Virus record (IMG/VR): IMGVR_UViG_3300023174_002543 | Location: 187,664-251,663 of that record | DNA length: 64,000 nt | Reading direction: 5' to 3' (one strand) | Source: a virus | Shown: in pieces, positions 3,814 to 53,702 of the stretch | Layout: the number at the start of each line of letters is the position of its first letter | Numbering within the stretch: the stretch's first letter is position 1 | Notes under the pieces: model-generated | What the model saw: the letters and a program-made list of their open reading frames with translations, nothing else | The model's database searches: none | Told to the model about the DNA's origin: nothing | Program-made: the position numbers and the translations under genes

Positions 3814-6153
3814 TCAGAAGCGTACTGCTAATTGAATTTGTGCTATATCAGCAACGACTCCATTTTGTCTTTGTTGACCTATTTTTAGTATCATAGTAGA
3901 GTTGTTTTGTGCGTTATACATCAATGTTCCGTAAGCAGTAGATAGATTTTTATTGTTTTGTGCTACTTCCCCGGATACTGCCCAATTTTGATTAAATTGG
4001 TGTTCATAGCGCATTCCATACTCTGTAGTATCAACTGTTTGCTTTAGGTTAGTATAGTCAACTGCTGTTAGTGAAGAACCAGTTTCCATAACATAGTCAC
4101 GTGAATTATGTTCTTTTCTAGCACCAACGAAAGGTCTGAATCCCTTCATAGCAGGGGTATATACACGCAAATGCGCCCAGGTATCCTGACCATGTGTATT
4201 AGCATTGTTACTCATACTTAATTCAGGTAATGTATGGAATGTATTATAAGTATTTTTGGATTGTCCTACATCAGTTTTAAATATCCAATCATTATGTACA
4301 TATAGGTTATAGATAGTAAGTGCTTCTTTGTATAAACTACCGCCACTGTTAGTGCCATCTAATACAGTGCTTATTCGGTTGTATTGTAAACCTAACAATG
4401 AAGAACGACTAATTCTATGCTCTGCACCAAATGTATCTATTGTTGCAGTATAACTATACCCATCTGATAAGTTAGACTTTGTTTTTGAACCATGTATATA
4501 AATGTTAATATCACGGTCATCAAAACTACGGTTAGAGATTCTATCGTCTTTAACTAAGTTTCTACTTAATGGATCACTTAATAAACTATAGTTGATTCTA
4601 GTATTGGTTTCAGATAGTTTATCCATTTGGTCAATGCGTGTAGTATAGTTTTGATCCGTTGAGGTAATCTGAACATCATCTACAATAGTTGTAGTTGTTG
4701 TCACATCATTTCTTGTAGTAACTACGGTTACAGGAGTATCTGTTGTAGTAGTTGTTGTACCATCACTCCAAGTAGTAACTGAAGTAGGAGTTGTAACGGT
4801 AGTTATAGTTACCGGTGTTGTATTAGTAACCACAGTAGTTACAGGTGTTGTACTAGTTAGTGTGGTAGTACGAATGATATTGAGTTCTCTTACACCACGC
4901 TCACCTCTAGTATTAGCATATGTAGTAACATCAACGGTTGAACCCCTTGTTATATTACTTGTTGTTACTGTTGTACCTGGTGTTTCTGTTACTACAACCG
5001 ATGATGTGCCCGGTGTAGTACTGACTACTGTAGGTGCAGGTGTAGACATACTGCTTACAGAGCCTGCGGTTCCTGGATTAGCAATAGAACCAACTAATGT
5101 ACTTGTGCTGGTTGATGTGTTATTACTATCATAGTAATAGGTAACTTCACCTATCTGTACGCTATCACATGCTAATGTACCTAATGCTGATTGACAACCT
5201 GATATTGAACCATACGTATCAATAGCCTTAATGCTAGGGAATGTTATAAAGTAATAAACATATGGATTATTATTATTAATAGTAATCATACTTGTTTGAG
5301 TATAACGACCGCTGACATTTTCTAATGTTGTACTTTGATTTGCAGTAATCTCAGTCCAAGTACGACCATCATTACTACCATACAAGGTAAACTTAGTAGG
5401 ATCTCTTGGTACAAAGTCGTTAGCAGTAGTAAATTTAATACCATTGATGACTTTACCTGCATTCAATGTAATTGTAAATCCTGCATTAGCACGGTCAAAG
5501 TTTAAATATTTCGTACCACTACTTCCGTCAACTGCCTTAGTTGCACCTTCACCACTTGGACTATTACTACTTGTAGGAGTAACAGTACTGATAATGCTAC
5601 TTGTAACTGCTGTATAGTTTACAGTAGGTGCAACAGTTTGTCCTGCGGCTAATGGAGTAGTTGAACCACCTACACTCAATGCATTAACTTGTGATAATGT
5701 TGGATTGCGTGTTCCAGTCCATGACAACCCACTAGTGTTAGCAAAACCTTGTGTCATACTAAACAACTGACCGGTGTTGTTATCATTGCCCACAAAGAAG
5801 AAATAGTCTGTGCCCATATTAATAATATGCCCAGTGCCCATTACTGCTTTTTGAACGCCTGCTGAATTATATTGAATAGCATTGTATGGATTTGTGCTGT
5901 TACCTGTAGCTACAAATTTAATATAGTCTCCGGAAGACCAACTTAGTTGACCACTTGTCCATGGAATCTTATATGCTGTTCCAGGATTTTTACTATAGAT
6001 TTGACAAGTGGTCGTATTCATACAAGCATTAACATTCCACTGACTATCTGCTATCTGTGCTTGACCAAATTGTAAATCTGTAAAATCTGCACTTGCATTT
6101 ACGCTCATGGCGGTAAGCAGAGCCATAATGGCTCCCTTTAAAAATCTTATCAT
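3814..6153 (-). CDS. Secreted/outer-membrane protein: Sec signal peptide (MIRFLKGAIMALLTAMSVNASA), F5/8 type C (discoidin) domain (KAVDGSSGTKYLNFD...), long Thr-rich linker, C-terminal autotransporter-like beta-barrel ending in ...LAVRF
   Basis: Signal peptide and terminal aromatic residue seen in translation; Thr-codon repeats 4690-5100. Confidence 0.5.
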   Translation of the reverse strand: MIRFLKGAIMALLTAMSVNASADFTDLQFGQAQIADSQWNVNACMNTTTCQIYSKNPGTAYKIPWTSGQLSWSSGDYIKFVATGNSTNPYNAIQYNSAGVQKAVMGTGHIINMGTDYFFFVGNDNNTGQLFSMTQGFANTSGLSWTGTRNPTLSQVNALSVGGSTTPLAAGQTVAPTVNYTAVTSSIISTVTPTSSNSPSGEGATKAVDGSSGTKYLNFDRANAGFTITLNAGKVINGIKFTTANDFVPRDPTKFTLYGSNDGRTWTEITANQSTTLENVSGRYTQTSMITINNNNPYVYYFITFPSIKAIDTYGSISGCQSALGTLACDSVQIGEVTYYYDSNNTSTSTSTLVGSIANPGTAGSVSSMSTPAPTVVSTTPGTSSVVVTETPGTTVTTSNITRGSTVDVTTYANTRGERGVRELNIIRTTTLTSTTPVTTVVTNTTPVTITTVTTPTSVTTWSDGTTTTTTDTPVTVVTTRNDVTTTTTIVDDVQITSTDQNYTTRIDQMDKLSETNTRINYSLLSDPLSRNLVKDDRISNRSFDDRDINIYIHGSKTKSNLSDGYSYTATIDTFGAEHRISRSSLLGLQYNRISTVLDGTNSGGSLYKEALTIYNLYVHNDWIFKTDVGQSKNTYNTFHTLPELSMSNNANTHGQDTWAHLRVYTPAMKGFRPFVGARKEHNSRDYVMETGSSLTAVDYTNLKQTVDTTEYGMRYEHQFNQNWAVSGEVAQNNKNLSTAYGTLMYNAQNNSTMILKIGQQRQNGVVADIAQIQLAVRF

Positions 6154-6241
6154 TGTAGAACTCCTTTGTTATTTTTATTATTGTTTGTCTACAATAATAT
6201 TTAACTAAAGAGTTGGTGCAATCAATGCTAGTATTTATTTT

Positions 6242-7135
6242 TTAGCAGTTGTACACGCCTGGATCCATAACTATAGTACCATTACCGTCTGAATTATACC
6301 AACTACCTCCGCCAGCACCAGCACCACTGTATGGGCTATCCGAACTACGTGATAATCCTATGAAGGTTAACTGGTGTCCTACTGCACTGTTATCTTCTGC
6401 TAATGTAGGATTTCCATACCCAAGTGATTGAATCAATGCGATACAATTTGAAACAGCAGGTAATGGTGCAGTTGGAACTGTAATTGTACTTGATGTTGGA
6501 TTATATACATACGAATTTGAAACTATGCGAATATCTGTTTGATAACCTACAAAAGGTAAACCATCTTGCGGATTTGGCCAACCATTACCAATAGTCAATG
6601 AATTAGATTCATACACTATATTGTCTGTTTGCGTACCACCGCAACGAACTCCGTTAACCCAAACGGCCTCTACATTACTATTGGCAGCATTTCTACTTAC
6701 TGCAATATGATACCAAACATTTTTTACAAAATTTGTACTAGGTACATATATATTTTGACCAACAAAATATCCATCTACTCTTATGTTTGAATTATTAACT
6801 GTTTGACTACCGTCCCAATAATTATCATTAACATATATTCCTAGATAGTGCGGTTGTCTTGTGGTATCGCTTGGACTACCTATAAAAGTACCTACGCATC
6901 TACTAGCACTATTATCCCATTTAACCCATCCCTCTACTGTAAATGAACGGGTAGTAGTTGGTCTTGCTTTACCAGTTATGAGATTATAAGGTCCGGTATA
7001 ATCTGTGTTATTTACGATAGCGTCATTTGGAGTAGAACCGGATCCACCTCCACCTCCGCCTGTGCCGGCTCCGAATGTGATCCCTTTGCCTATTGTTAGG
7101 CCTGCGTGTAATGTTAATGTTAATGGTGCAACCAT
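6242..7135 (-). CDS. Gly-rich protein with LamG/ConA-like jelly-roll features (TFTVEGWVKWD...); possible fibre/adhesin component
   Basis: Weak motif-level similarity only. Confidence 0.3.
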   Translation of the reverse strand: MVAPLTLTLHAGLTIGKGITFGAGTGGGGGGSGSTPNDAIVNNTDYTGPYNLITGKARPTTTRSFTVEGWVKWDNSASRCVGTFIGSPSDTTRQPHYLGIYVNDNYWDGSQTVNNSNIRVDGYFVGQNIYVPSTNFVKNVWYHIAVSRNAANSNVEAVWVNGVRCGGTQTDNIVYESNSLTIGNGWPNPQDGLPFVGYQTDIRIVSNSYVYNPTSSTITVPTAPLPAVSNCIALIQSLGYGNPTLAEDNSAVGHQLTFIGLSRSSDSPYSGAGAGGGSWYNSDGNGTIVMDPGVYNC

Positions 7136-7171
7136 GATAATCCTTTTTAATTATCACGTATTTATCTCTTT

Positions 7172-7387
7172 TTAACGTCTACGGGTAATTCTGCCCTTAG
7201 ATAAATCATAGGGGCTAAACTCTACCTCTACAGTATCGCCTAATAATATCTTAATATCGTGCTTACGCATTCTACCACTAATATAGCCCATTATGATATT
7301 ACTACCGGGCATCTCTATCCTAAACATAGCGTTGGGTAATACTTCTACTACCTTCCCGTCTAGTTTAATACCTTCTTCTTTTGCCAT
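7172..7387 (-). CDS. infA: Translation initiation factor IF-1
   Basis: 71 aa; near-colinear with E. coli InfA (MAKE..NAMFR.E...[27 protein letters not shown]). Confidence 0.85.
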
Positions 7388-7777
7388 TTATCTCCTCATT
7401 TTACTGATATCTTGAGCCTCTTCATCACTAAAGATGGGTACTGCATTGCTCTTATGCATAGTACCGATACCAATAATTTTAGTACCTGTGTATTTTGGAA
7501 TTTGTTTTACACTTGCAATACCATCACCCGTGTTACGACTTGGAATATGTGTAGTTGTGCGACCTGCAGGGGCGGATAATTTATATGTGAGTGGCTCGGC
7601 TTTTAACGCACGTTTACGTTTCTTGTCGTCCTGCTCTACTTCCCAACGCTTTTGCAATTCTTTCCAAGAGGCGTCTAGTTCACGTGCCTTACGTGCTTCC
7701 TCTGCATTACGGAATTTGAATTTACCCTTACGCTTACCGGTCAATGTTAGAGCCGGACCTACTAAGTGCATAGTCAT
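7388..7777 (-). CDS. Hypothetical basic Lys/Arg-rich protein (ORF-track start 7819 overlaps promoter; internal Met preferred)
   Basis: ORF in minus-strand array; no recognisable domain. Confidence 0.35.
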   Translation of the reverse strand: MTMHLVGPALTLTGKRKGKFKFRNAEEARKARELDASWKELQKRWEVEQDDKKRKRALKAEPLTYKLSAPAGRTTTHIPSRNTGDGIASVKQIPKYTGTKIIGIGTMHKSNAVPIFSDEEAQDISKMRR

Positions 7778-7807
7778 AATGATAATTGTTGAGTTGACAT
7801 AGTTGTT

Positions 7808-7836
7808 AGTATAGCACAAATAGGATTTATTGTCAA
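7808..7836 (-). promoter_or_regulatory. sigma70-type promoter TTGACA-N17-TATACT
   Basis: Hexamers read directly; 17-nt spacer. Confidence 0.5.
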
Positions 7837-7838
7837 CC

Positions 7839-8249
7839 TTATTTTTTTAAGATTTTCCACATTTCTTCCGCATGTAATATCTCTTTTTCCATTTCGCGGT
7901 ACTCATCACCCAATTTCTTGAGTTTTTCCCACTTTTCTTCTAACTTTTCATTTGGGTGTAATATAGCTAATCTTTTTTCTATGTTATCTATTAACTTAGT
8001 AAGGCTTTTACCTTTTATTTTAACATCACCTTCAAACTCAGCATCACCGCCAACTAGTAATGATGCACCCTTAAGGTTAGGATCTGCACTTATAGTGTAA
8101 GGGCCAGAACCAGTACTTACAGTCCACGGGCTTGTGTTTGTAGTTGTTGTAGTTCCCCAGGTAATTGTGCTACTTGCACCGTTACTCATTAATACTTGTC
8201 CTGATGTGCCTGTGATAGGGCTAGTATATGTATATGTGGGACTACTCAT
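7839..8249 (-). CDS. Hypothetical protein, Thr/Ser-rich N-terminus, coiled-coil C-terminus
   Basis: ORF only. Confidence 0.35.
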   Translation of the reverse strand: MSSPTYTYTSPITGTSGQVLMSNGASSTITWGTTTTTNTSPWTVSTGSGPYTISADPNLKGASLLVGGDAEFEGDVKIKGKSLTKLIDNIEKRLAILHPNEKLEEKWEKLKKLGDEYREMEKEILHAEEMWKILKK

Positions 8250-8440
8250 TATTTCTTAGCCTTACTGATAATATAACGACCTTTATCATCAACACTAAAC
8301 TCTAGCGTATCACCCTCTTTCCAACCTAGTTTACGTAATAATGGAGGGGGTAATGGGATAACTACATCCCCGTTCTCGTCAAATGTAGTTACTTCATAAC
8401 TTTCTTTACTAGGAACGAAATTCTTTGATGATTTTGTCAT
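8249..8440 (-). CDS. AbrB/MazE/SpoVT-type swapped-hairpin DNA-binding domain protein (VIPLPPPLLRKLGWKEGDTLEFSVDDKGRYIISK)
   Basis: Motif pattern 'ip.elrkklglkeGd.lev.vedg.iil.p'. Confidence 0.45.
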   Translation of the reverse strand: MTKSSKNFVPSKESYEVTTFDENGDVVIPLPPPLLRKLGWKEGDTLEFSVDDKGRYIISKAKK

Positions 8441-8463
8441 TTGTGTATTATAGTACTTTTTTC

Positions 8464-9018
8464 TTAGATAGTCAAATCTCTTTTACCCACATATGGATTA
8501 TAGATTTTTTCTAATTGTTGTATAGTGTGACCAGTACTTTCATCACTATGTTTAACTGCAATGCCACCTGCACTAGCCCAAGCACTCAAGTACTTTCCGA
8601 AGTCATCTACTAATACTTGTGGTTTACCGTTTTTAGTAGCATATTTATATTTTGCACTTGTAAAGATAGCATTACTGCTAGTACCCGGATTGTAAGTGTC
8701 TAACCATTCACGCTTACCTTTGATGCTTGCTTGCCCCTCCATTCTAAGAGGAGCACTTAATACAGTAAAAGGTATTTTGTTTCTATGTAACCAAGCAATG
8801 ATTACCTGTCCACCAGGTAATGGATCTAAGTCTCTAAAAAAATGATATACATTTTCGGGACCTGATTTTGCCAATCTAACGATTGCTTCCTCAGGGTTTG
8901 TGATATCTTTATAATGTTTAACTTTTTCTATCTCAGCCCAACGACCAAAGAAGTCGGCTTGAACTCCATCCATATCAAGGTATAAATGGGGCATTGATTC
9001 GATTTCTTGGATTTTCAT
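8464..9018 (-). CDS. HAD-superfamily 5'(3')-deoxyribonucleotidase-like (NT5C family; LYLDMDGVQADF motif I). True start may be Met9 (8994)
   Basis: DxDGV motif near N-terminus. Confidence 0.55.
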   Translation of the reverse strand: MKIQEIESMPHLYLDMDGVQADFFGRWAEIEKVKHYKDITNPEEAIVRLAKSGPENVYHFFRDLDPLPGGQVIIAWLHRNKIPFTVLSAPLRMEGQASIKGKREWLDTYNPGTSSNAIFTSAKYKYATKNGKPQVLVDDFGKYLSAWASAGGIAVKHSDESTGHTIQQLEKIYNPYVGKRDLTI

Positions 9019-9024
9019 ATTAAT

Positions 9025-9053
9025 AGTATACTATATTGTATTTAGTATGTCAA
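9025..9053 (-). promoter_or_regulatory. sigma70-type promoter TTGACA-N17-TATACT; only 6 nt between -10 and the first ATG (9018)
   Basis: Read directly. Confidence 0.5.
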
Positions 9054-9122
9054 TATTTATTTGACCAAAATCAAATAAATACTAATAAGAAGTATTATAA
9101 CTAAAGTATAAGGAGTCAATCT

Positions 9123-9899
9123 GTGGATCCATTAACACTGTTTGCGTTAGCCAACGGGGCAGTAGCCGCTGTTAAGAAAGGGTGTCAATTATATAAGGAC
9201 ATCAAAGGCGCCGCGGGTGATGTTAAAGCAGTATTAAAGGATCTTGACGAACAGTTTAGTAAAGCACATCCACCAGAAAAGCCAGCAAGTCCTGAGGCAC
9301 GTAAACAGTTCATAGAAGAAAAAAATCGTGTTATTGAATTGAATAAACGTGACGGTGAAACTGCCGGTATATACACCGAACTAGGTGAACATCTAGGTGC
9401 ATACTATGACAACTACTACAAGTGCATGGCTGTGTTTGAGGAAGAAGAAAAACGTGCAAAGACTGAGGTTTATCACGGAGATGCTAGTTTAGGTAAACGC
9501 GCCTTACAACGTGTTTTAATGCGTAAACAACTAGAACAGATGGGTGTGGAATTACGTGAGATAATGGTCTATCAAAGTCCAGCCGAATTGGGTGCGTTGC
9601 ACACTGAAGTTGAAGAAATGATGAAAGAAATGGGCAAACAACAAAAAATTCTAATTGCCCAGCAAATGCAACGTGACCGTGCCATGGCAATTAAAAGACG
9701 TAAAAAAAATGAAAATCTTTGGATACAGGCAACATGGGGAGTAGGCGCAATTATAATCATTGCAGCATTTAGCATAATGTTAGCAATGGTAGTAGAATCA
9801 CGTAGGAATTTATATCCTCAATTAGGCAATCAATGGATACCTAAAACAGAACAACAACGTAAAAAAGAAGCAGAACCACAAATATACATAGGAAGGTAA
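9123..9899 (+). CDS. Hypothetical protein with C-terminal transmembrane segment; GTG start with AAGGAG RBS
   Basis: RBS 8 nt upstream of GTG 9123; plus-strand island. Confidence 0.45.
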   Translation: MDPLTLFALANGAVAAVKKGCQLYKDIKGAAGDVKAVLKDLDEQFSKAHPPEKPASPEARKQFIEEKNRVIELNKRDGETAGIYTELGEHLGAYYDNYYKCMAVFEEEEKRAKTEVYHGDASLGKRALQRVLMRKQLEQMGVELREIMVYQSPAELGALHTEVEEMMKEMGKQQKILIAQQMQRDRAMAIKRRKKNENLWIQATWGVGAIIIIAAFSIMLAMVVESRRNLYPQLGNQWIPKTEQQRKKEAEPQIYIGR

Positions 9900-9909
9900 C
9901 CATGATAAT

Positions 9910-10068
9910 ATGGCAGATAATAATAAAAAAGAAGAATACGAATCCTTATGGGAATCATTTGTTGATATGGGAATTAAAAAGGCTTTATTACTAGTATGGT
10001 CTGTGTATATAGTAGCATATATTGCAGCCATGGCTATATTGTATTGGGCCCACAAACATTATAGATAA
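9910..10068 (+). CDS. Small (52 aa) membrane protein, not in ORF track
   Basis: Manual translation MADNNKKEEYESLWESFVDMGIKKALLLVWSVYIVAYIAAMAILYWAHKHYR. Confidence 0.3.
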   Translation: MADNNKKEEYESLWESFVDMGIKKALLLVWSVYIVAYIAAMAILYWAHKHYR

Positions 10069-10117
10069 AATAAATAATTATATGAAATTATCACTATATA
10101 CAATTAATACACATCAT

Positions 10118-10140
10118 GCCCCTATTTTGGGGCTTTTTTT
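10118..10140 (+). terminator. Rho-independent terminator GCCCC-TATTTT-GGGGC-TTTTTTT
   Basis: Perfect 5-bp GC stem + 7 T. Confidence 0.65.
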
Positions 10141-10153
10141 AGGAGGAAAACCT

Positions 10154-10291
10154 ATGAGTTGGTTTAATAGAAAACCCAGATTAAGAGAACCAAGCAGACC
10201 TTCTGCGCCACATCGCACTAGTCCAGTCTCAGAAAAAATATTAAAAGAAGCAAAAAAATTAGGTCCAAAGAAAAAACTAAAAAAAGAATGA
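10154..10291 (+). CDS. Small (45 aa) Lys/Pro-rich basic protein; AGGAGG RBS 8 nt upstream
   Basis: Terminator at 10118-10140 lies inside the longer ORF-track ORF 10022..10291, so the downstream ATG 10154 with consensus SD is preferred. Confidence 0.45.
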   Translation: MSWFNRKPRLREPSRPSAPHRTSPVSEKILKEAKKLGPKKKLKKE

Positions 10292-10344
10292 AGTATTAGT
10301 TTACCCAAGTTTTATCTTTATAAATATATACAAAGGTAACTTAT

Positions 10345-10536
10345 ATGATAACAAAAATGATATGTAGGTTGCGTAAACTTTTAATATATGTATTCAAGGA
10401 AATACCAATTATATTGTTACTTGAGATATGGACTATCGCTAGGGTGTTGTCAACCTTAACGATAGTATTCTATATTATAATTAACAATTTTTTGAAAAAT
10501 AATGTTGATGCTTGTATATTAAGTTTTTTTAAATAG
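10345..10536 (+). CDS. Hypothetical small hydrophobic protein
   Basis: ORF only. Confidence 0.25.
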   Translation: MITKMICRLRKLLIYVFKEIPIILLLEIWTIARVLSTLTIVFYIIINNFLKNNVDACILSFFK

Positions 10537-10543
10537 GCTATTT

Positions 10544-10852
10544 ATGAAATTTTTATACACACTTTTACTATTATCAGTTATGACAACTGCAAATGCTCAA
10601 GTCTCAGAAACTATTACAACCGTTATGCCATGCGGTGAAACAAAACTTATTACTGATAAGTTAAAAAACAGTTATAATGAGAACCCTATTATAATCGGTA
10701 TAGCCGATGATGAGGTTAATAGTTTAATGTCATTGTGGGCTAATACTAAAACCGGTAGTTGGACACTAGTTGCATCTAGTCAAGGACTAAGTTGCATTAT
10801 AGGTACTGGAAAAAATTTAAAGGTTGTCGAGTCTGCTGGCAAGACTATTTAA
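10544..10852 (+). CDS. Small secreted protein (signal peptide MKFLYTLLLLSVMTTANA|Q)
   Basis: Signal peptide pattern. Confidence 0.45.
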   Translation: MKFLYTLLLLSVMTTANAQVSETITTVMPCGETKLITDKLKNSYNENPIIIGIADDEVNSLMSLWANTKTGSWTLVASSQGLSCIIGTGKNLKVVESAGKTI

Positions 10853-11214
10853 AACACCATTGTCAATATAAACAAGTATGTTATCTGATGTGCCATTTGG
10901 TCTAATCCCAAGTGATTCCAAAATTGAATTTTTGACACATCTGTCTCCCCATAATTCATTTTAGTCCAGTCAATGTGATAATGCAATAAACTGTCAATAA
11001 TTGCCAATATCATAGCATATAAAAAGTAACCTTGACCAGTAATCGCTAGTATACAGAATAAAGTAGCTATACCATGTTTGATGCTATGTGTCATACCTTG
11101 CATACTACCATAGATGCCCTTATGTTCCAACTCGCTTTTGGTTTGTGCGGCAAAATCAATATACCAATGTTTGATTTGCAATAGTATGTATAGTGTGATT
11201 AATTCAACTGACAT
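10849..11214 (-). CDS. Hypothetical polytopic membrane protein
   Basis: Hydrophobic segments. Confidence 0.4.
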   Translation of the reverse strand: MSVELITLYILLQIKHWYIDFAAQTKSELEHKGIYGSMQGMTHSIKHGIATLFCILAITGQGYFLYAMILAIIDSLLHYHIDWTKMNYGETDVSKIQFWNHLGLDQMAHQITYLFILTMVF

Positions 11215-11222
11215 GTTTTTCC

Positions 11223-11474
11223 TTATTTTCTGATGGGTGTATAATCAACGTTTGGGGTGGGTGAATAATCTTTGGTAAAGCTATTACGCATCTCATCACC
11301 ATACTTTAATGTGATATAACTAAAGAGTGTATCTTTACCTTCATTTATTCCTATACGCAAATAGTTTAGCCACTTGATTTTTTCATGGATATGCTTTTTA
11401 AGATTGATATCTTTTAGTATATCATCAAAGTTATTTGATTCACGGTAAAAAGTAATGTACTTCATTTTTTCCAA
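11223..11474 (-). CDS. Hypothetical protein
   Basis: ORF. Confidence 0.3.
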   Translation of the reverse strand: MEKMKYITFYRESNNFDDILKDINLKKHIHEKIKWLNYLRIGINEGKDTLFSYITLKYGDEMRNSFTKDYSPTPNVDYTPIRK

Positions 11475-11671
11475 AGTATAAAGTTTATATAGTCTGTCTC
11501 TGATTCAAAATAGAATGTATATTTGCCGGGAAGTAATCCTGCCATACCTTGTATATCATAACCCCAATCTGCAATGCATTGGTTTTGACACCAATTCATT
11601 ATAGGTGCAAGCTGACCAAACTTAATGTCAATTTCAGTCTTGTACTGTGTGTTGGGTGACATTGACTCCAC
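11462..11671 (-). CDS. Hypothetical protein
   Basis: ORF. Confidence 0.3.
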   Translation of the reverse strand: MESMSPNTQYKTEIDIKFGQLAPIMNWCQNQCIADWGYDIQGMAGLLPGKYTFYFESETDYINFILWKK

Positions 11672-12152
11672 TCTTATTTAAGAAATTTATACCATCATCG
11701 CTACGATAAGTGTTACGGTATAAAACGTTGTTAATACCACTTTGGTAGATAAGTTTGGCACAGTCCAAACATGGAGCATGGGTAATAAACAAAGTAGCAC
11801 CCACACCAGATTCGTTAGATTTAGCAAGTTTCGCAATCGCATTCGTTTCAGCATGTAATACCTCGGGCTTAGTTTTTAGTCCGTAACGCACATCACGTTG
11901 GACACTATCGTGCCATTCTTCATACGGATACTTTTCTGCAAACTCATCTGGATCCAACCATCCGCCTGCTCCAGGATCATAAACTTTGTCTTCACAGTTA
12001 TTATCCCAACCACTGGGCATACCGTTATACCCAATAGATATGATTCTATCATCTTTAACAATGATGGCACCAACTTTCAATCGTATAGCATGGCTTAACT
12101 GACTTGTACGTTCGGCTACATCCATGAAATAGTTAATAAACTTTTGTTTCAT
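11634..12152 (-). CDS. cd: dCMP deaminase (HAETNAI...ATLFITHAPCLDCAKLI zinc-binding motifs)
   Basis: H-A-E and P-C-x2-C cytidine/dCMP deaminase motifs. Confidence 0.8.
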   Translation of the reverse strand: MKQKFINYFMDVAERTSQLSHAIRLKVGAIIVKDDRIISIGYNGMPSGWDNNCEDKVYDPGAGGWLDPDEFAEKYPYEEWHDSVQRDVRYGLKTKPEVLHAETNAIAKLAKSNESGVGATLFITHAPCLDCAKLIYQSGINNVLYRNTYRSDDGINFLNKSGVNVTQHTVQD

Positions 12153-15996: not shown

Positions 15997-16602
15997 TTAT
16001 ACAACATTATTTGTAATACGTTTTTCTAACACTTTATCCGCTAGCCCATACTCCACTGCTTGGGTAGCACTCATAAAATTATCACGTTCCATATCAGCAG
16101 ATAATTGTTCAAATGTTTTACCCACACTATTATGCTTAACATAAATGTTAGTGAGGTTCTTTTTCATCTCAATAATTTCATTTACCTGAATAAGCATATC
16201 AGTTGCTTGCCCACGTGCGCCACCTGATGGCTGGTGAATCATGTGTCGTGCATTGGGAAGAATAAAACGCTTACCGGGGGAGCCTGCTTGTGCAAGTAAA
16301 CTACCCATTGAACATGCCTGACCCATAACAATTGTATGTACATCTGGTCCGATAAATTGCATTGCATCATAGATAGCCATACCAGCAGTTACACTACCAC
16401 CTGGGCTATTGATGTAAACTGAAATGTCTTTATTGCTATCTTCGCTTTCTAAGAATAACAATTGGGCAACAATAAGATTTGCCATTTGGTCATGAACCTC
16501 ACCCTCAAGTAAGATAACACGGTCACGCATTAATCGACTATAAATGTCGTAACTACGTTCACCCTTTGATGTTTGTTCAATAACGATTGGTACTAATGCC
16601 AT
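15997..16602 (-). CDS. clpP: ATP-dependent Clp protease proteolytic subunit ClpP (Ser GQACSMGS, His MIHQPSGG, Asp ERD)
   Basis: Catalytic triad motifs in order. Confidence 0.85.
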
Positions 16603-16626
16603 ATAACTTCCTATAAAATAGTAATT

Positions 16627-16655
16627 ATTATATAAGAAATTTACTTGATTGTCAA
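16627..16655 (-). promoter_or_regulatory. sigma70 consensus promoter TTGACA-N17-TATAAT upstream of clpP; -35 embedded in palindrome CTTGATTGTCAAG
   Basis: Read directly. Confidence 0.55.
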
Positions 16656-16663
16656 GTGTTTAG

Positions 16664-18259
16664 TTATCTTTTTTTGACCACTGATTGCTTGCTGCGACCC
16701 ACATTACCGCCTGCTTTAACCTGTTGTGATAGTTTGGTAACTTTATCGGGTTCGGCTATACTTTGTGAAATTTCGGGTTCGTCAATATCTACATCTGGCG
16801 TAGTGTCAACATCAATATATGGACCGTCTGGGCCCATATCTTCATAGTCACTTGCGTTACGACCTAACTTGAAACTAAACCCAGCACTACTTGGTTCTAC
16901 TGCACTAGATTTGTTTTCCATAGTTACAACGCCTTCAAGTTTTGAGGGCCATTGTGTAGCAAATGTTATCTCACCATTAGAATTGTAATCGGTGTATTGT
17001 TGAATAAAGTTCATTTCTAAAACTTGTAGAATAGTATCTGCAAATTCTGGAACAACTGCTTTACTGTTAACTAACTGTGCAATGGTTTTCTTAATCTTAT
17101 AAACCATTTTACCACCGTCACTAGCCTTCTCACTGTTAACATCATTTATTAAAGGTTGATATACTTGCGGTAATTGTAATGATTGTATACCCTTTTCATT
17201 CTTTTGACCCTTGATACTATTAATACTTGCAATACATTGTTGTTGTAGTTTAGGAGCCTTGCTTTCAAATGGTAAAAATTTATGCCAAACTTTTGGTACA
17301 CCGTTTGGACTAACTGAATATAAGAAATCCATAATCTTAAATGCCTGTACAATAGTACTTGGACCAGTCTCATCTTTACCTGCCTGACATAATTCAATTA
17401 ATCTAACTGCATTCTTTAATTTTGCATTACGTTTGATATCTGGACTTATCTTCAACCCTGATATTGCAGGAGCTGCTCCACCACCGGTACCTTTACTACT
17501 GATATTCAAACTATGGCTTGTATTTGGATTTTTAATAACTGCATAACTATCAGCAATGTTATTGTTAGCCGCACTAGGGAAGTTCAATGTTAACTCACCG
17601 ATATCACCACCTAGCCACTCTAAGAACTGTTGCTTTCTTGGGAAGCGACTACGACCATATAATAATGCCAGTACACCCAAGTATTCACCTGCATAATCAA
17701 CAATTGCTTTGCGTTCTGATTCTTTTGCTTTTTCTAAATATTCAGGTGGTAATTGACAATATTCACCTGCAATAATATATTGTGCTAGTTGAATAACTAC
17801 TCTACCATAGTCTGTACTTTGAAGTACTTGATTGCCTGCAATTTGTTCGTATAAATCCGTAGCAGGAATATCTCTGTCTGTAATCTTAATTAAACTTGGT
17901 TTCAGTAATACGGATTCTTTTGTACTACCGCCAAATTCTTCATTCTTGGCCAATTGTGACATCGGAATTTCTTGTCCGTCTTTAGTTAAGATAGTTGTTT
18001 TCTCACCCTTGAACGTACCGTCCTTCTTCATTTTAGTTAGACGCTTTGCCTCATTTGGATCAATAAAGATTTGGTCACCTGTTACATTGTCAATGAAGGG
18101 TTGATTTGTGGATATCTTTTGAATCAATAACGTCCAACGTGCAGGGTCTTTGTTTATTTGGGTGGGGGTTAAGCCGTTAGCAAAAAGAGTTTGAGGAGCA
18201 TTAGGATCCTTCTTTGTTGCTTCTTCTAAATTTTCTAGTATTGTTAATAAATCACGCAT
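16664..18259 (-). CDS. Hypothetical 531-aa protein, no recognised domain
   Basis: ORF. Confidence 0.4.
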   Translation of the reverse strand: MRDLLTILENLEEATKKDPNAPQTLFANGLTPTQINKDPARWTLLIQKISTNQPFIDNVTGDQIFIDPNEAKRLTKMKKDGTFKGEKTTILTKDGQEIPMSQLAKNEEFGGSTKESVLLKPSLIKITDRDIPATDLYEQIAGNQVLQSTDYGRVVIQLAQYIIAGEYCQLPPEYLEKAKESERKAIVDYAGEYLGVLALLYGRSRFPRKQQFLEWLGGDIGELTLNFPSAANNNIADSYAVIKNPNTSHSLNISSKGTGGGAAPAISGLKISPDIKRNAKLKNAVRLIELCQAGKDETGPSTIVQAFKIMDFLYSVSPNGVPKVWHKFLPFESKAPKLQQQCIASINSIKGQKNEKGIQSLQLPQVYQPLINDVNSEKASDGGKMVYKIKKTIAQLVNSKAVVPEFADTILQVLEMNFIQQYTDYNSNGEITFATQWPSKLEGVVTMENKSSAVEPSSAGFSFKLGRNASDYEDMGPDGPYIDVDTTPDVDIDEPEISQSIAEPDKVTKLSQQVKAGGNVGRSKQSVVKKR

Positions 18260-18268
18260 AATATGTAT

Positions 18269-18760
18269 TTAGCACTTGAACAAATCTTGGTGTTTAAACC
18301 AACGTTTTTGTCCATGACTAGTTTTTAGCGCAATACCGTGTTTAGCTAATTTGTCACGGAATACAAAGAAACTAGGACCGTGACTTAGAATGAAATCTTT
18401 ACCTTTTCTATAACGCTTGGGTCCATCTATATCCCATTGATATTGATGACACATTTCATGTGCTAGTGTAGTTACCATCCACTGCGGGCAGAACCATTTA
18501 TCCATCATTTTTATAGTACAGTAACTCCCTGTATAGTTTATTGAAGTTTCTGCTATACACATGCCCCAGTATTTCTTACAATGACTAGCTAAAACTAACT
18601 TTGGCATATGTAGTTTATTGTCAAAAATTAACCAATTCAGTTGTTCATATACATGTCTAATATCACTTTTTGAGGGTCTATAGGGTAATTTTCTCTGTAA
18701 ATAAACAGGGGGAAGAGGAAAATCCATTATTTCTTCTAAGGAGTAGTTAATGAGTTTCAT
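18269..18760 (-). CDS. SprT-like/WLM-type zinc metallopeptidase (LAHEMCHQ HExxH motif)
   Basis: HEMCH motif. Confidence 0.4.
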   Translation of the reverse strand: MKLINYSLEEIMDFPLPPVYLQRKLPYRPSKSDIRHVYEQLNWLIFDNKLHMPKLVLASHCKKYWGMCIAETSINYTGSYCTIKMMDKWFCPQWMVTTLAHEMCHQYQWDIDGPKRYRKGKDFILSHGPSFFVFRDKLAKHGIALKTSHGQKRWFKHQDLFKC

Positions 18761-18829
18761 ACATATATTTATGAAAAATATACTACTTTAGTGCAAACCA
18801 ACTAAATAATAGTACAAGGAGAATTTATC

Positions 18830-19111
18830 ATGGAATTGATTATTGGAATCGCAGTTATTGCAGTTGTTGGTTATTTTGTTTTACGCAAAAAACCAGAAGT
18901 AGTGCAAGAAATCGTTGAGGAAGTTAAAGAAGTCGAGAAAAAAGCTGAAGTAGCAGTTGCTAAGGTTGAAGCAGAAGTTAAAGAAGTTGCTAAAAAGACT
19001 ACCACCCGTGTTAAAAAAGCATTGGATGTTAATCAAGATGGCAAGGTCAATGCTAAAGACGCAGTTGCTGCCGTTAAAAAAGCACGTAAACCACGTGCCC
19101 CTAAGGCGTAA
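18830..19111 (+). CDS. Small membrane-anchored Lys/Val/Glu-repeat protein
   Basis: AAGGAG RBS; plus-strand island. Confidence 0.4.
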   Translation: MELIIGIAVIAVVGYFVLRKKPEVVQEIVEEVKEVEKKAEVAVAKVEAEVKEVAKKTTTRVKKALDVNQDGKVNAKDAVAAVKKARKPRAPKA

Positions 19112-19134
19112 TTCTTTAATTAAACATTAACGGA

Positions 19135-19156
19135 AATAGGGCTACGGCCCTATTTT
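19135..19156 (+). terminator. Hairpin AATAGGGC-TACG-GCCCTATT + T-rich tail
   Basis: 8-bp stem. Confidence 0.45.
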
Positions 19157-19159
19157 ACT

Positions 19160-19855
19160 ATGATTTTTGGCTTTGATATAATTAGTGATTTAAACCTAAC
19201 AGAGAATGATATCTTTGATTGGGAAGGAAAGCCAACAAGTCTTTATTGTGTGCTTGCAGGTAACATATCTAGCGACCTGCACGTACTCTATAAAACTATC
19301 AAACATTTGAGTAAGTTATATCAAGGTGTTTTTTATATAGATGGTTTTATAGAAAATAGCCAAATAGAAGATAAAGACCGCGTTATAGATGAAATATCAA
19401 AAATATTCACTGGTATGAAAAATGCAGTATATCTACATAACAATGTAGTTGTAGTAGAGGGAGTAGCATTAGTAGGAGTGAATGGGTGGTACGGAAATCA
19501 AGCCACTACACAAGGAGACACACTCAATCTAAGAATGAATAGGTATGATGATTTGGCATACCTGCAAAAAACAATAGAGAAATTGCAACTTCATATAGAT
19601 GTAAAACAAATCGTAATAATTTCTAATAGTATACCTTCTATTGAATTGTATTTTGGTGAGAAACCTAATATAGATCCAGCTGAGATAAATCTAAATTATG
19701 TGTTAGATACTGATACTGAGAGTAAAATAACTACTTGGGTATTCGGAACACATAAAAAAATAGTTGACACCAAAATTAACGGTGTCAACTATTTTAATAA
19801 CCCTTGTCTTACTAAGATTCCTTATTACCCTAAAAGAATCAATATAGAAGTTTAA
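19160..19855 (+). CDS. Hypothetical protein
   Basis: ORF. Confidence 0.35.
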   Translation: MIFGFDIISDLNLTENDIFDWEGKPTSLYCVLAGNISSDLHVLYKTIKHLSKLYQGVFYIDGFIENSQIEDKDRVIDEISKIFTGMKNAVYLHNNVVVVEGVALVGVNGWYGNQATTQGDTLNLRMNRYDDLAYLQKTIEKLQLHIDVKQIVIISNSIPSIELYFGEKPNIDPAEINLNYVLDTDTESKITTWVFGTHKKIVDTKINGVNYFNNPCLTKIPYYPKRINIEV

Positions 19856-20163
19856 ACTTCGCTTTCAATTTTGACTTGTAAGGGGAAACCTTCTTGTCTT
19901 GCATCAAGTGTAACTTCAATTCCCTTTTGTTCTGCAATCTCGTATGGCAATACTGCAACTACAGCACTTCCTTGTTCATGTATACCTACTGTGATATTTT
20001 GTGCGGTATCACTGGTATAATTAAAGTGATCCACTAAACTACGTACTACAAAATCCATAGAAGTTAGTTCATCATTTAAATAGATAACCTTGAACATAGG
20101 GGGTTCTTGGATAGCTAGATTAGGCTTGATTTTAATTTTTGTATCTATATGTGTTGATGCCAT
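19852..20163 (-). CDS. clpS: ClpS adaptor protein
   Basis: Colinear with E. coli ClpS core (K.I.LND..T.M.FV...L...F.....A......H..G.AV). Confidence 0.75.
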   Translation of the reverse strand: MASTHIDTKIKIKPNLAIQEPPMFKVIYLNDELTSMDFVVRSLVDHFNYTSDTAQNITVGIHEQGSAVVAVLPYEIAEQKGIEVTLDARQEGFPLQVKIESEV

Positions 20164-20224
20164 TTTAAACCCTTAAAGTTAGTAGTGCATATTTCTATAC
20201 ACTACTTTTATTTACAATAAATGT

Positions 20225-20253
20225 ATTATACTATTTAGTGTAGTTTATTGCAA
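20225..20253 (-). promoter_or_regulatory. Promoter TTGCAA-N17-TATAAT upstream of clpS
   Basis: Read directly. Confidence 0.5.
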
Positions 20254-20698
20254 TACTCTTGGGTTTTTTGTCTTCCGGGACTAAACGTTCGCATGTAATA
20301 GTCAAAATACCGTTATTATGCTCGGCATTTTTAACTTCCATGTGTTCTCCTAAGATAAATTCACGTTGGAAGTTTCTATAACTAATACCACGGTGTAGAT
20401 ATTCTTTTGGTTTATCCAAATCCTGAATTTTGTTACCAGTGACAGTAAGCATACGATTTTCTATCTCAATAGAAATTTCCCCTTGAGTAAATCCTGCAAC
20501 TGCAATTTCAATTGCAAAATTGTCCTCAGAGATTTGTACCACATTGTACGGTGGGTAATTATTATTTGTTTGTGTTGCATTCATACGCATCAATTCGTCT
20601 AACATAGAATCAAATCCTATGCCAAATCTATGAATTGCAGGTATGTCTAATGAACGTAATGATAATGTGTTTGTCATGTTTTTCTCCTTATTAAGCAA
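20231..20698 (-). CDS. Small heat-shock protein Hsp20/IbpA family (alpha-crystallin domain)
   Basis: Size and ACD pattern (GISYRNFQREF..). Confidence 0.7.
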   Translation of the reverse strand: MLNKEKNMTNTLSLRSLDIPAIHRFGIGFDSMLDELMRMNATQTNNNYPPYNVVQISEDNFAIEIAVAGFTQGEISIEIENRMLTVTGNKIQDLDKPKEYLHRGISYRNFQREFILGEHMEVKNAEHNNGILTITCERLVPEDKKPKSIAINYTK

Positions 20699-20708
20699 GT
20701 ATATGACA

Positions 20709-20760
20709 AGCGGGCCTCGAAAGCGCCCGCTATCTTTATAGAATCTTATTTAGATTCTTT
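20709..20760 (-). terminator. Two tandem hairpins (AGCGGGC..GCCCGCT and AGAATCT-TATTT-AGATTCT) immediately after dnaK stop
   Basis: Inverted repeats read directly. Confidence 0.4.
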
Positions 20761-22677
20761 TACCTCTGCATCAACCACTGTTGACTCATCAACGGGTTTT
20801 GCAGTTTCTTCTGTAGTAGCAGTTGGATTTGCTGCCTCTTCAGCCTTCTTCTTGGCTTCTTCTTCCTCATACTTAAACTTAGTAATTGGACCGATAGCCT
20901 CGTATAACTTAGGAATACTATCTTGGATTGCTTTAGGATCATCACCTTCCATAGCAGTTTCAACAGCCTTAATAGCTTCGTCTGCTTTGTTGCGTTCTTC
21001 TTCGGTGACCTTATCCTTATAAGCCTCAAAGTCTTTCTTAAAGCCAAACAATGTACCTTCAGCACTATTACGTGCTTGTACTAATTCAACATGTTTCTTA
21101 TCGGCTTCAGCATTCAACTCACCATCTTTAACCATTTGTTGAATTTCTGCTTCACTTAATCCTGAATTAGCCTTGATAGTGATTTTGTTCTCTTTACCAG
21201 TACCTTTGTCCTTAGCGGACACTTTGAGAATACCGTTAGCATCAATATCTAATGTAACTTCAATCTGTGGTTGACCACGTGGTGCTGGTGGAATGTCACC
21301 CAAACTAAACTCACCCAATACTTTATTATATTGGAATAGTTCACGTTCACCTTGACCTACTTTAATAGTAACTGCCGGCTGATTGTCATCCGCAGTACTA
21401 AAAGTTTGTGAATGTTTAGTTGGGATAGTTGTATTCTTGTTAATCAATTTAGTGAATACACCACCGACTGTTTCGATACCAAGACTCAATGGAGTAACGT
21501 CAAGTAATAGAACGTCACTACGGCCACCACTCAATACATCACCCTGAATAGCAGCACCTGCGGCAACTGCTTCGTCTGGGTTAACATCTTTGCGTGGTGC
21601 CTTGCCGAATAATGATTCAACAACTTCTTGCACCTTAGGCATACGTGTCATACCGCCAACTAAGATAACTTCATCAATGTCACCTGCACTAACATTAGCA
21701 TCTTGCATAGCCTGACGACATGGAGCCAAACTACGTTGGATTAACTCGTCAACCAATTGTTCTAATTTAGAACGTGATAGTTTAACGTTCATGTGCTTAG
21801 GACCATTTGCATCGGCTGTAATATATGGCAAGTTAACATCTGTTTGTGCTGAACTTGATAATTCAATCTTAGCCTTTTCTGCGGCTTCTTTTAGTCGTTG
21901 TAGTGCCAACACATCTTTACTTAAATCAACTCCGTTGTCTTTCTTAAACTCATCAATTAAGAAATCCATAATACGTTGGTCAAAGTCTTCACCACCTAAG
22001 AATGTATCACCGTTCGTAGACAATACTTCGATTTGTTTGTCACCGTCAACATCTGCTAATTCAATGATAGATACGTCAAATGTACCACCACCTAAGTCAT
22101 AGACTGCAATTTTACGGTCACGTTTTTCTTGTTTATCAACACCATATGCTAGTGCGGCCGCTGTTGGCTCGTTAATAATACGCAATACTTCTAAGCCTGC
22201 AATTTTACCTGCATCCTTAGTTGCTTGACGTTGACTATCGTTAAAGTAAGCAGGAACTGTAATAACTGCTTGGGTTACATCATGTCCAAGATAGTCTTCG
22301 GCAGTCTTTTTCATCTTGCGTAGTACTTCGGCACTAATTTGCGGGGGTGCTAACTTTTCATCATTAACTTGTACCCATGCATCACCGTTATCGTTCTGTA
22401 CGATTTTGTATGGCATTAGGTCAATATCTTTTTGCACAGCCTGTTCATTAAACTTACGTCCAATTAAACGTTTGCTTGCATAGATTGTGTTCTTTGGATT
22501 TGTAACTGCTTGGCGTTTGGCGCTTGCACCAACCAAGATTTCATCGTTTGCGTAGGCAACGATTGAGGGTGTAGTTCTAGCACCTTCTGAATTTTCAATT
22601 ACTTTGGGGATTCCGTTTTCGATAACGGCTACGCATGAATTTGTGGTACCCAAATCGATACCGATGACTTTGCTCAT
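20746..22677 (-). CDS. dnaK: Hsp70 chaperone DnaK
   Basis: [25 protein letters not shown], full-length 643 aa. Confidence 0.9.
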
Positions 22678-22783
22678 TTTTTTCTCCTTTAAAAAGCAAG
22701 ATGTTTATATAGACCTGACTATCAGCGTCCATATGTATTTATATATTTTACATTGTTGCGTAAAATATTTGTATATTATTGGG

Positions 22784-23002
22784 TTAATATTGTTTAGGGG
22801 GAAGTGTTTGGTCACGCAAATACTTTTTCCAACGACTCTTTGCTTTACTCTTATCTATCTTACGCTTAGTAGTGGGTTTTACAAATTCTTGTCTATCACG
22901 GATTTCTTGGATTAATCCTGACTCTAAGATTTTTTTTTTGAATTTACGTAATGCTTTTTCAACATTTCCGTCTGGTCCTACTATTACTTTTCTTCCTGGC
23001 AT
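22784..23002 (-). CDS. rpsU: Ribosomal protein bS21
   Basis: MPxxKV....ALR.FK......G...E.R.R..F.KPT..RK motif, 72 aa. Confidence 0.8.
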   Translation of the reverse strand: MPGRKVIVGPDGNVEKALRKFKKKILESGLIQEIRDRQEFVKPTTKRKIDKSKAKSRWKKYLRDQTLPPKQY

Positions 23003-24192
23003 ATGATTGGTGTTGGTTTAATAATCTGCTCCCTACTTATATTTATCTTTTTAACATTAAACTTACGATATTCACGTGTCCGATACATATGGCACATTAA
23101 TGCTTTTTCAATTTCAGTGTGCAAGCCCCTAGCACCGGTCTTTAGTGCTAGTGTATTTTCTGCTAATTGATCCAATGCATCTTCTGTAAAGGTCAAATCA
23201 ATTTCATCTAATTTAAGCAAATATTGATATTGACTGATATAGTTGTTTTTCACATCTGTAAGAATATGTATTAATTGTTCTTTAGTGAGGTTTTTTACAC
23301 TAATAGTGGTTGTAAAACGACCTACAAATTCCGGAATTAATCCAAACTTAGTCAAGTCATCAGGGGTGACTTCTGACAAATCACCTTCTATTTTACTATC
23401 TTTAATGTCTGCGGCAAATCCAATACTAGTACCATTGGTGCGTTTTGCTATAATTTCTTTTAATCCTACAAATGCACCACCTGCAATGAATAATATATTT
23501 TTAGTATCAATCTCAACCATGTCTGAACCAGGGTGTTTACGTCCACCTTGATTAGGTACACGACAAACTGTACCCTCAACTAACTTAAGCAATGCTTGCT
23601 GTACGCCCTCACCTGACACATCACGGGTAATGCTAGTACTTTCACTTTTACGGGCAATTTTGTCAATTTCATCAATGAATACGATACCCTTTTCAGCTAA
23701 AGATTTGTCTCCTCCAGCCGCGTTAAGCAACATACTAATCATTGATTCAACATCATCACCTACATATCCGGCTTCGGTTAAACTAGTAGCATCGGCAACA
23801 ACAAACGGAACCTTTAAATACTTGGCGGCAGTTTTAGCCAATAGTGTTTTACCACTACCAGTTGGACCAACTAACAATACATTGCCTTTTTGAATTTCTA
23901 AGTCTTTGGGAGGACGACTAATACGCTTATAATGATTAGTGATTGCGACACTTAACACTATTTTAGCACTATCTTGACCCACAATATGTTGGTCCAAATA
24001 TTCTTTAATACTTTCAGGATCATATTGGGGTTCTTCTTGTGGACCTGAGGTTTCATCAACTATTAATTCTTGGCAAAGTTCAACACAATCGCTACAGATT
24101 GCTACACTTTCACCTACGATTAATTTTTTGACTGTTTCTTTACTAGTACCACAAAAACTACAATGAGTGAGTTGTTTATTTTCTTCTGTCAT
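22984..24192 (-). CDS. clpX: ClpX ATP-dependent unfoldase (N-terminal C4 zinc-binding domain CSFCG..CSDC; Walker A GPTGSGKT)
   Basis: ZBD + AAA+ motifs. Confidence 0.85.
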
Positions 24193-52294: not shown

Positions 52295-52475
52295 TTTTAA
52301 TCCATAGTTCTAATGCTTTTGCCGGATAAATCTGAACAGAGCCTTTTTCAGTATCGCTTTCAACTGCATAGCCTTCAGGTGTCAATTCAGTTGAATATGT
52401 ACCAACAACAACAACACCGTGCCATTGTGACCCGGAAACTTTTTTTACTAAATCACCTAATTTAAATTTACTCAT
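52281..52475 (-). CDS. Hypothetical small protein
   Basis: ORF. Confidence 0.3.
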
Positions 52476-52692: not shown

Positions 52693-52701
52693 TATTGATC
52701 C

Positions 52702-53626: not shown

Positions 53627-53702
53627 GTTAATTCTCCTATGTTAATTATAGCATAGGACGCAGAATTTGTATACCGGGATGAGCCCATAAGGCCGGTTAT
53701 CT

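Follow-up and report, generated by a model that had tools for sequence, protein, structure and literature searches.

The window analysed here is a stretch of 64,000 nucleotides (64 kb) from the IMG/VR virus record IMGVR_UViG_3300023174_002543 (positions 187,664 to 251,663), and it holds a small gene for translation initiation factor IF-1. The window has 36.6% G+C, is about 88% coding and carries nearly all of its genes on the minus strand. The IF-1 gene lies directly behind the gene of p129, a basic protein of 129 amino acids (aa), and the same strand carries a homologue of the ribosomal protein bS21 together with chaperone and protease genes (Table 1).

The IF-1 reading frame consists of 71 codons and a stop, is initiated by ATG and fits its interval exactly in the list of open reading frames (ORFs). 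The 71-aa protein matches NCBIfam TIGR00008, the infA equivalog family, with 99.1 bits (E 9.8e-29; curated cut-off 61.15), and its residues 3-70 align with profile positions 1-68 of 69. infA is the only NCBIfam family with E <= 0.01 for this protein, with no CspA-type cold-shock domain match, and PF01176 is the sole Pfam family on record for its relatives. When compared with Protein Data Bank (PDB) sequences, the protein aligns gap-free over residues 1-70 with solved IF1 chains, among others those of E. coli (1AH9, 9FCO) and P. aeruginosa (2N78). It is about 54-55% identical to E. coli IF1, with about 54% for the ribosome-bound form, and its C-terminus is one residue shorter (71 vs 72 aa). Thus, the predicted product is a full-length orthologue of bacterial IF-1. 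A preliminary description had already named the product IF-1, which the profile score above its cut-off and the alignment to solved chains bear out, and had called it near-colinear with InfA, a wording that is too weak for a fully colinear protein. A possible frameshift or truncation was also examined. The gene is intact, and the identical protein occurs across many independent assemblies (47 blocks of independent public assemblies, 24 contigs read).

We compared residues in an alignment of 135 unique viral and bacterial sequences (61 unique viral and 73 unique bacterial in the column counts). In the viral clade as well as in bacteria, conservation is 97-100% at the columns L17, P18, N19, F22, G38, R41, G50, D51, P59, Y60, R66 and R70, and the phage IF-1 retains every residue that is invariant among the compared IF-1s. 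The kept motifs are the LPNAxF loop, SGxMR, GD, PYD, the Arg of GRI and the Arg69 equivalent. This last residue, R70 in the phage protein, is the counterpart of Arg69 in E. coli, a residue essential for the binding of IF1 to 30S (PMC4611024). Bacterial IF-1 has an S1/CspA-like oligonucleotide-binding (OB) fold, sits in the 30S A site in contact with S12, and flips out A1492 and A1493 (PMC4611024). The viral copies also share a signature that is rare or absent in bacteria, namely G6, G34 (A/C in bacteria), E54 (T/K), F57 (M/L/I) and R69 (aromatic), along with mostly Y35 (H in bacteria) and D44 (R/Y/F in bacteria). The viral C-terminus ends in RRR with residue 72 lost, and the conserved bacterial His30 is replaced by a variable residue.

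A viral lineage of IF-1

Relatives of this IF-1 are found on at least 295 IMG/VR viral contigs. In the best 80 of these the protein is 68-87% identical to the query, and the contigs reach 524 kb. The bacterial comparison was a pattern-seeded scan of one genome per bacterial or archaeal species (185,579 species), and among the matches listed the best bacterial IF-1s are 54-66% identical to the query. These matches come from unrelated phyla, with Campylobacterota, Omnitrophota, Clostridia, Thermodesulfobacteriota, Rickettsiales and others represented, and they point to no single host lineage. In a collection of 5.8 billion proteins, the viral signature, or a form of it that differs at one residue, is found in all of the 142 closest proteins. 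Within the 135-sequence alignment the median identity is 77% between viral sequences vs 58% between viral and bacterial ones (maximum 70%), and the viral set forms one split in a neighbor-joining tree (61% bootstrap, 72 columns).

The phage IF-1 is under strong purifying selection. For 63 unique viral IF-1 coding sequences, the median ratio of nonsynonymous to synonymous substitution rates (dN/dS) is 0.073 over 804 usable pairs and 0.065 where dS < 1 (maximum 0.29), and nine contigs with the identical IF-1 protein show 6-11 synonymous base differences. The gene has a GC content of 0.38 and of 0.36 at third codon positions (GC3), close to the other window genes, and there is no compositional break in the region. 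Homologues of L36 (rpmJ), S13 (rpsM) and Adk stand beside infA in 33, 32 and 29 of 80 bacterial loci, respectively, and in 0 of 89 viral loci.

The identity gap, signature residues, selection, synteny, composition and neighbourhood together indicate a long-term viral gene rather than recent host DNA. It is almost certainly a viral IF-1 homologue that is maintained by selection. The preliminary description was therefore right to call the gene phage-encoded, given the PolB of jumbo-myovirus type, the large contigs, the 295 or more IMG/VR contigs and the lack of ribosomal-protein neighbors in the 89 viral loci. Recent host DNA, which it had raised as a possibility, was checked by identity and phylogeny. 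This origin is rejected because no bacterial match listed exceeds 66% identity while the viral copies stand at 68-87%, dN/dS is about 0.07 and the viral synteny is conserved.

The element looks like a jumbo myovirus of about 350-370 kb that is related to the Atu_ph07/Phosso/RaK2 group. Its PolB fragment is 50.7% identical to that of Agrobacterium phage Atu_ph07 and 49.5% to that of Sinorhizobium phage Phosso. Further relatives are Xanthomonas XaC1, Vibrio 2.275.O and Klebsiella RaK2/K64-1 (about 46%), and the listed jumbo myoviruses range over 44-51%. The longest contig with the identical IF-1 protein has 369,957 bp. Relatives 80-87% identical lie on contigs of 349,679, 353,027 and 362,345 bp, and close relatives range over 349-364 kb. 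PHROG scans of ten large unannotated ORFs gave no convincing capsid, portal or terminase in the window. Because no structural genes were found there, the viral assignment rests on PolB, the large contigs, the IMG/VR relatives and the promoters. Neither tRNA nor tmRNA genes were found in the 64-kb window, and no Rfam family reaches its gathering score there. When positions 5000-12000 were compared with GenBank phages by megablast, nothing matched, and a close relative in culture is thus lacking. The phage clade is widespread and probably from freshwater, and the sample names seem to hint at lake metagenomes. Of the family-B DNA polymerase, the window has just a 372-aa ORF, which matches the C-terminal portion of the Pfam model. 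The N-terminal part of the polymerase would lie past the window end, possibly as its own ORF, which would make this a split polB.

Gene order and expression signals

In 81 viral loci the gene order is NT5C nucleotidase, AbrB/MazE-like 63-aa protein, p136, p129, IF-1 and Sod_Fe_C-like gene. Both p129 and p136 are present in 76 of the 81 loci, the 63-aa protein and NT5C in 67 each, and the Sod-like gene is directly downstream in 57. The TAA stop of p129 (7388-7390) directly abuts the IF-1 ATG, and the Shine-Dalgarno motif of IF-1 lies inside the last p129 codons. In most of the commonest junction sequences of related loci, GGAG or AGGAG stands just before the IF-1 start.

The p129-IF-1 pair lies behind a sigma-70-type promoter (Table 1). 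Of 38 distinct upstream regions from relatives, 37 have a site scoring at least 10/12 at 29-33 nt ahead of the p129 start, and in 33 it is TTGACA-N17-TATAAT or TATACT. Throughout the window, the coding strand has 20 sigma-70 sites scoring at least 11/12. Every one of these has a 17-nt spacer, and 11 are perfect TTGACA-N17-TATAAT. A single such site is found on the opposite strand, and the expected count in simulated sequence is 2.3 +/- 1.4. Dense consensus host promoters are typical of the early regions of T4-like phages, and the cluster of sites looks like such an early-gene region. A GGAG-type motif occurs 4-12 nt before the first ATG in 47 of 101 window genes vs 7 of 101 control positions. 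We found no intrinsic-terminator-like site in positions 6000-10000. Since p129 and IF-1 stand behind a conserved near-consensus sigma-70 promoter, early expression is likely, and we infer that the host sigma-70 holoenzyme would transcribe the pair early as one bicistronic message. The consensus -35/-10 promoters and the Shine-Dalgarno use point to a host with an ordinary sigma-70 and Shine-Dalgarno-led initiation, and they would argue against a Bacteroidota host.

The partner cistron p129 matches phrog_27048 (E 1.7e-28), a PHROG without a function label, and has no Pfam match. Its AlphaFold2 (AF2) model is uninformative, with a predicted local distance difference test score (pLDDT) of 63.7 and a predicted template-modelling score (pTM) of 0.29. 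The metagenome protein collection has more than 8000 relatives of p129. Only the ~156-kb myoviruses of Comamonadaceae (Acidovorax ACP17, Delftia PhiW-14) and two more phages, the lake Synechococcus phage BUCT-ZZ01 and the unassigned Phage C48C1, have distant homologues of it, and the neighbourhoods in the 156-kb phages are uninformative. None of ACP17, PhiW-14, BUCT-ZZ01 and Phage C48C1 has an IF-1 match in the tblastn search of GenBank phages.

Proposed role of the phage IF-1

We suggest, with moderate confidence, that the phage IF-1 supplements or replaces host IF-1 on the 30S subunit during infection. Unmodified host RNA polymerase would transcribe the gene early in infection, and the protein would occupy the A site of host 30S subunits in the same way as host IF-1. 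The supply of IF-1, and hence the rate of 30S initiation-complex formation, would then be kept up or raised as host expression declines. The long infection cycle of a jumbo phage would be the setting for such sustained initiation capacity, and the phage IF-1 may act beside the phage bS21 and the phage chaperone/protease set (ClpP, ClpX, ClpS, DnaK, Hsp20 and SprT-like). We favor this role because the binding residues are kept, selection is strong, a Shine-Dalgarno motif and a promoter are present, and bS21 and the chaperones form the genomic context. A precedent for it is the published takeover of parts of translation by huge phages (PMC7162821, PMC9723584).

Several points weigh against this role. 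Both 30S binding and early timing are deduced from sequence, and no functional or expression study of any phage IF-1 was found in the literature. Support for the viral clade is moderate, on a tree of only 72 columns. The AF2 model of the phage IF-1 is all-beta with six strands, where an OB-fold beta-barrel has five, but its pLDDT is 69 and its pTM 0.52. The top 13 PDB matches of the model in Foldseek are all bacterial IF-1, with template-modelling scores (TM) of 0.42-0.46 and a root-mean-square deviation of about 10-11 A. Since a model of this quality (pLDDT 69, TM about 0.45) is only moderate, it gives little independent support. In addition, the viral clade has fixed changes at sites that are conserved in bacteria: A34G, H35 mostly to Y, T/K54E, M/L/I57F, aromatic 69 to R, and the loss of residue 72 and of His30. 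The activity may therefore differ from that of a plain IF-1.

These changes lead to the alternative that a virus-adapted IF-1 alters initiation, by outcompeting host IF-1 or by changing start-site or mRNA selectivity, the interplay with IF2/IF3 or the release on 50S joining. Together with p129, its co-translated neighbor, and the phage bS21, such a factor might favor phage messages. We consider this unlikely. The clade-fixed G34, Y35, D44, E54, F57 and R69, the missing residue 72 and the variable His30 speak for it. Reportedly, E. coli His29 is involved in the 50S-induced ejection of IF1, as Gualerzi et al. are said to have found in 1989. The tight junction of p129 stop and IF-1 start, with p129 upstream in 76 of 81 loci, and the co-occurrence of bS21 in the window are in line with it as well, and the same idea has been put forward for phage bS21 (PMC7162821, PMC9723584). 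However, p129 occurs in 156-kb phages without IF-1 (ACP17, PhiW-14, BUCT-ZZ01) and so is not an obligate IF-1 partner, and the Shine-Dalgarno usage (47/101 vs 7/101 in the control) is ordinary, so no unusual initiation signal is evident. A more specific form of this alternative is less probable again. Here the fixed A34G, H35Y, D44, E54, F57 and R69, the short C-terminus and the loss of His30 would retune 30S behavior so that ribosomes prefer phage mRNAs, perhaps with p129 and bS21. The retuning, if true, could concern affinity, IF2/IF3 interplay or release on 50S joining.

Slightly lower still we rate the idea that the phage IF-1 works mainly off the ribosome, as a small OB-fold RNA chaperone of the cold-shock-protein kind that melts mRNA structure or aids antitermination in cold freshwater hosts. 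E. coli IF1 has RNA chaperone activity, and IF1 overproduction offsets cold-shock protein loss in B. subtilis. The S1/CspA-like OB fold of IF-1 (PMC4611024) is consistent with this idea, as are the sample names, which appear to suggest lake metagenomes. On the other hand, the residues that stay invariant are those by which IF-1 binds the ribosome, the Arg69 equivalent among them. The profile match is to the infA equivalog and not to a cold-shock domain, and the gene co-occurs with bS21, a ribosomal initiation component. We give next to no weight to the view that IF-1 is not a phage gene at all, and comes from a cellular contig, an assembly chimera or a very recent functionless host pick-up. 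Though IF-1, bS21, DnaK, ClpX and ClpP are all typical cellular genes, several GenBank "phage" records matching IF-1 resemble host contamination, and capsid and terminase were not found within the 64-kb window, this view is largely refuted. The module recurs in 81 viral loci and the identical protein in many independent assemblies, the PolB fragment is nearest to jumbo myoviruses, and twenty consensus early-type promoters lie on one strand. There are no tRNA, rRNA or Rfam matches in the 64 kb and no ribosomal-protein neighbors, the window composition is uniform, dN/dS is 0.07, and bacterial identity among the matches listed is only 54-66%.

Phage-borne initiation factors have been catalogued, experimental tests of them were not found in the literature, and our finding adds a lineage to a known phenomenon. 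What is added here is a viral IF-1 clade that is distinct and abundant, has fixed signature residues, is under strong purifying selection and has a conserved bicistronic layout behind an early-type promoter. With these features the clade is well suited to the first functional test of a phage IF-1. The gene is very small and abundant in public metagenomes, has a defined promoter and ribosome-binding site, and shares its genome with bS21, and thus offers a clean test case. The question at stake is whether large phages merely top up the initiation capacity of the host or reprogram it.

Known systems and further features of the window

IF-1 in huge phages is already known, and the IF-1 described here is a new lineage. 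Al-Shayeb et al. (2020, PMC7162821) described IF1 genes of huge phages, and others are on record from soil huge phages (PMC11748809). Like the present element, these have genomes above 200 kb and carry IF-1 with other translation genes such as bS21, and the role proposed for the phage gene, redirecting host translation, is the same (PMC7162821, PMC11748809, PMC12880540). In the 360-402 kb gut Jug phages an IF-1/eIF-1A-family gene is likewise a conserved core gene (PMC12880540). The Lak and metagenomic huge phages belong to another phage lineage and have another IF-1 lineage. Furthermore, the hosts of Lak and Jug phages are Bacteroidota, whereas consensus sigma-70 promoters and Shine-Dalgarno sequences are probably in use in the hosts of the present phage.

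A tblastn search matched IF-1 in 35 of 50,697 GenBank phage records, several of them resembling host contamination. The identities are 61% for Phosso, 43% for Lak megaphages, 42-49% for the metagenomic huge phages LR756511/LR756508 and 43-46% for Bacteroides DAC/SJC. The statement of the preliminary description that IF-1 is uncommon in phages agrees with these counts, though the gene is not new to phages. The PHROGs family of IF-1 is phrog_30201, which has no function label. Among the matches, OR847427, OR848654, OR847832, OR846589, OR844994, CAKLQH020000005 and others, under names such as Listeria phage LM 4-11-1 / 4-14-1, Enterococcus phage Efs 1-1-1, Staphylococcus phage SA 1306 Kay and Acinetobacter phage MD-2021a, look like bacterial contamination, because IF-1 and DnaK stand there on small unannotated contigs, often of 1.5-7 kb. 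Such records inflate the apparent count of phage IF-1.

The closest cultured-phage IF-1 is the annotated one of Sinorhizobium phage Phosso (PV764938, 469 kb), whose PolB is also close. In Phosso, however, IF-1 is flanked upstream by a Clp-family ATPase and MutT, without the p129/p136/NT5C module. Most signature residues are absent from it, and it joins the clade of the window with only 26% bootstrap. The PolB relatives Atu_ph07, RaK2/K64-1 and XaC1 gave no tblastn match to IF-1. Bacterial InfA (TIGR00008/PF01176; E. coli 1AH9, T. thermophilus 1HR0) resembles the phage protein in length class, conserved residues and the Shine-Dalgarno sequence ahead of the gene. The phage copy differs in lying in a viral module and not beside rpmJ/rpsM/adk and in its clade-specific residues, and no species representative among the matches listed is more than 66% identical to it.

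The bS21 homologue, which the preliminary description had taken as a second translation-initiation component, holds up, with a PF01165 score above the cut-off, a phrog_21469 assignment and a position on the minus strand. Phage bS21 (Mizuno et al. 2019; Chen et al. 2022, PMC9723584) is, like IF-1, a small host-type initiation component of large phages thought to act on the host 30S, though it is another protein. The copies described by Chen et al. lie in the structural (late) block of Bacteroidota phages (PMC9723584), whereas the copy in the window is located between ClpX and DnaK. The nearest promoter-like site upstream of it on the same strand is of early type (25882-25854). Around bS21 the chaperone and protease genes form a proteostasis block (15997-24192), and the order ClpX-bS21-DnaK-Hsp20-ClpS recurs in independent contigs.

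Table 1. Coordinates of the IF-1 gene, its expression signals and other features in the 64-kb window
Feature	Position	Strand	Remarks
IF-1 (infA-like) coding sequence, 71 aa	7172-7387	minus	ATG start, TAA stop; ORF list and TIGR00008 match
Shine-Dalgarno GAGGAG of IF-1	7392-7397	minus	4 nt before IF-1 ATG, inside last p129 codons
Sigma-70-type promoter TTGACA-N17-TATACT	7808-7836	minus	11/12, TG before -10, ~30 nt upstream of p129 start
p129, 129-aa basic protein	7388-7777	minus	phrog_27048; first cistron of p129-IF-1 pair; median 69% identity
p136	7839-8249	minus	Same order and strand upstream of IF-1 in relatives
AbrB/MazE-like (SpoVT-AbrB fold) 63-aa protein	8249-8440	minus	Pfam on record, PHROG (phrog_661/4681 for upstream module)
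NT5C-type 5'-nucleotidase	8464-9018	minus	Pfam NT5C, PHROG (phrog_661/4681 for upstream module)
Laminin_G_3 (LamG3) protein	6242-7135	minus	Variable island
F5/8-type-C (discoidin) protein, 779 aa	3814-6153	minus	Variable island
Sod_Fe_C-like gene, 184 aa	3228-3782	minus	Usual immediate downstream neighbor of IF-1 in relatives (57 loci, offset ~525 nt)
ClpP	15997-16602	minus	
SprT-like	18269-18760	minus	
ClpS	19852-20163	minus	
Hsp20	20231-20698	minus	
DnaK	20746-22677	minus	
bS21 homologue, 72 aa	22784-23002	minus	PF01165 51.5 bits vs cut-off 27; phrog_21469
ClpX	22984-24192	minus	19-nt overlap with bS21
NUMOD3 homing-endonuclease-like gene	43750-44667	minus	
Radical SAM, QueE-like	51437-52294	minus	
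6-pyruvoyl-tetrahydropterin synthase, QueD-like	53177-53626	minus	
Cytidylyltransferase-like protein	53703-54170	minus	
GTP cyclohydrolase I	54893-55576	minus	
Family-B DNA polymerase fragment, 372 aa	62853-63971	minus	C-terminal part of Pfam model
Near-consensus sigma-70 sites, examples (span 7808-62836)	48202-48174, 43744-43716, 42898-42870, 37089-37061, 36834-36806, 36542-36514	minus	
Near-consensus sigma-70 sites, more examples	36103-36075, 35444-35416, 34638-34610, 16655-16627, 15979-15951	minus	

Between IF-1 and the Sod-like gene the window contains a variable island, and syntenic relatives have other cargo there. The 779-aa F5/8-type-C protein of this island begins with a signal-peptide-like stretch, is rich in Thr/Ser over a long middle part and ends in ...LAVRF, much as outer-membrane beta-barrel or autotransporter proteins end in Phe. 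Upstream, the 63-aa AbrB/MazE-like protein has its own 11/12 sigma-70 promoter (8475-8447). No toxin partner is evident adjoining it, and it may therefore be a small early transcription regulator.

One contig, IMGVR_UViG_3300027749_002876 (524,565 bp), has two divergent NT5C-AbrB-p136-p129-IF-1 modules, at about 90 kb and 448 kb. Relative to the query, IF-1 shows 75% identity in one copy and 71% in the other, and at the DNA level the two loci match each other in patches of 73-90% identity. A chimeric assembly of two related phages is more likely here than a duplication.

Other genes in the window encode a LysM-GH19 muramidase-like protein, an ATP-dependent DNA ligase, a 5'-3' exonuclease, UvdE and glycosyltransferases, and there is a NUMOD3 homing-endonuclease-like gene. 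A cluster resembling 7-deazaguanine/queuosine-precursor genes spans 51437-55576 on the minus strand, and its possible use is in DNA or tRNA modification.

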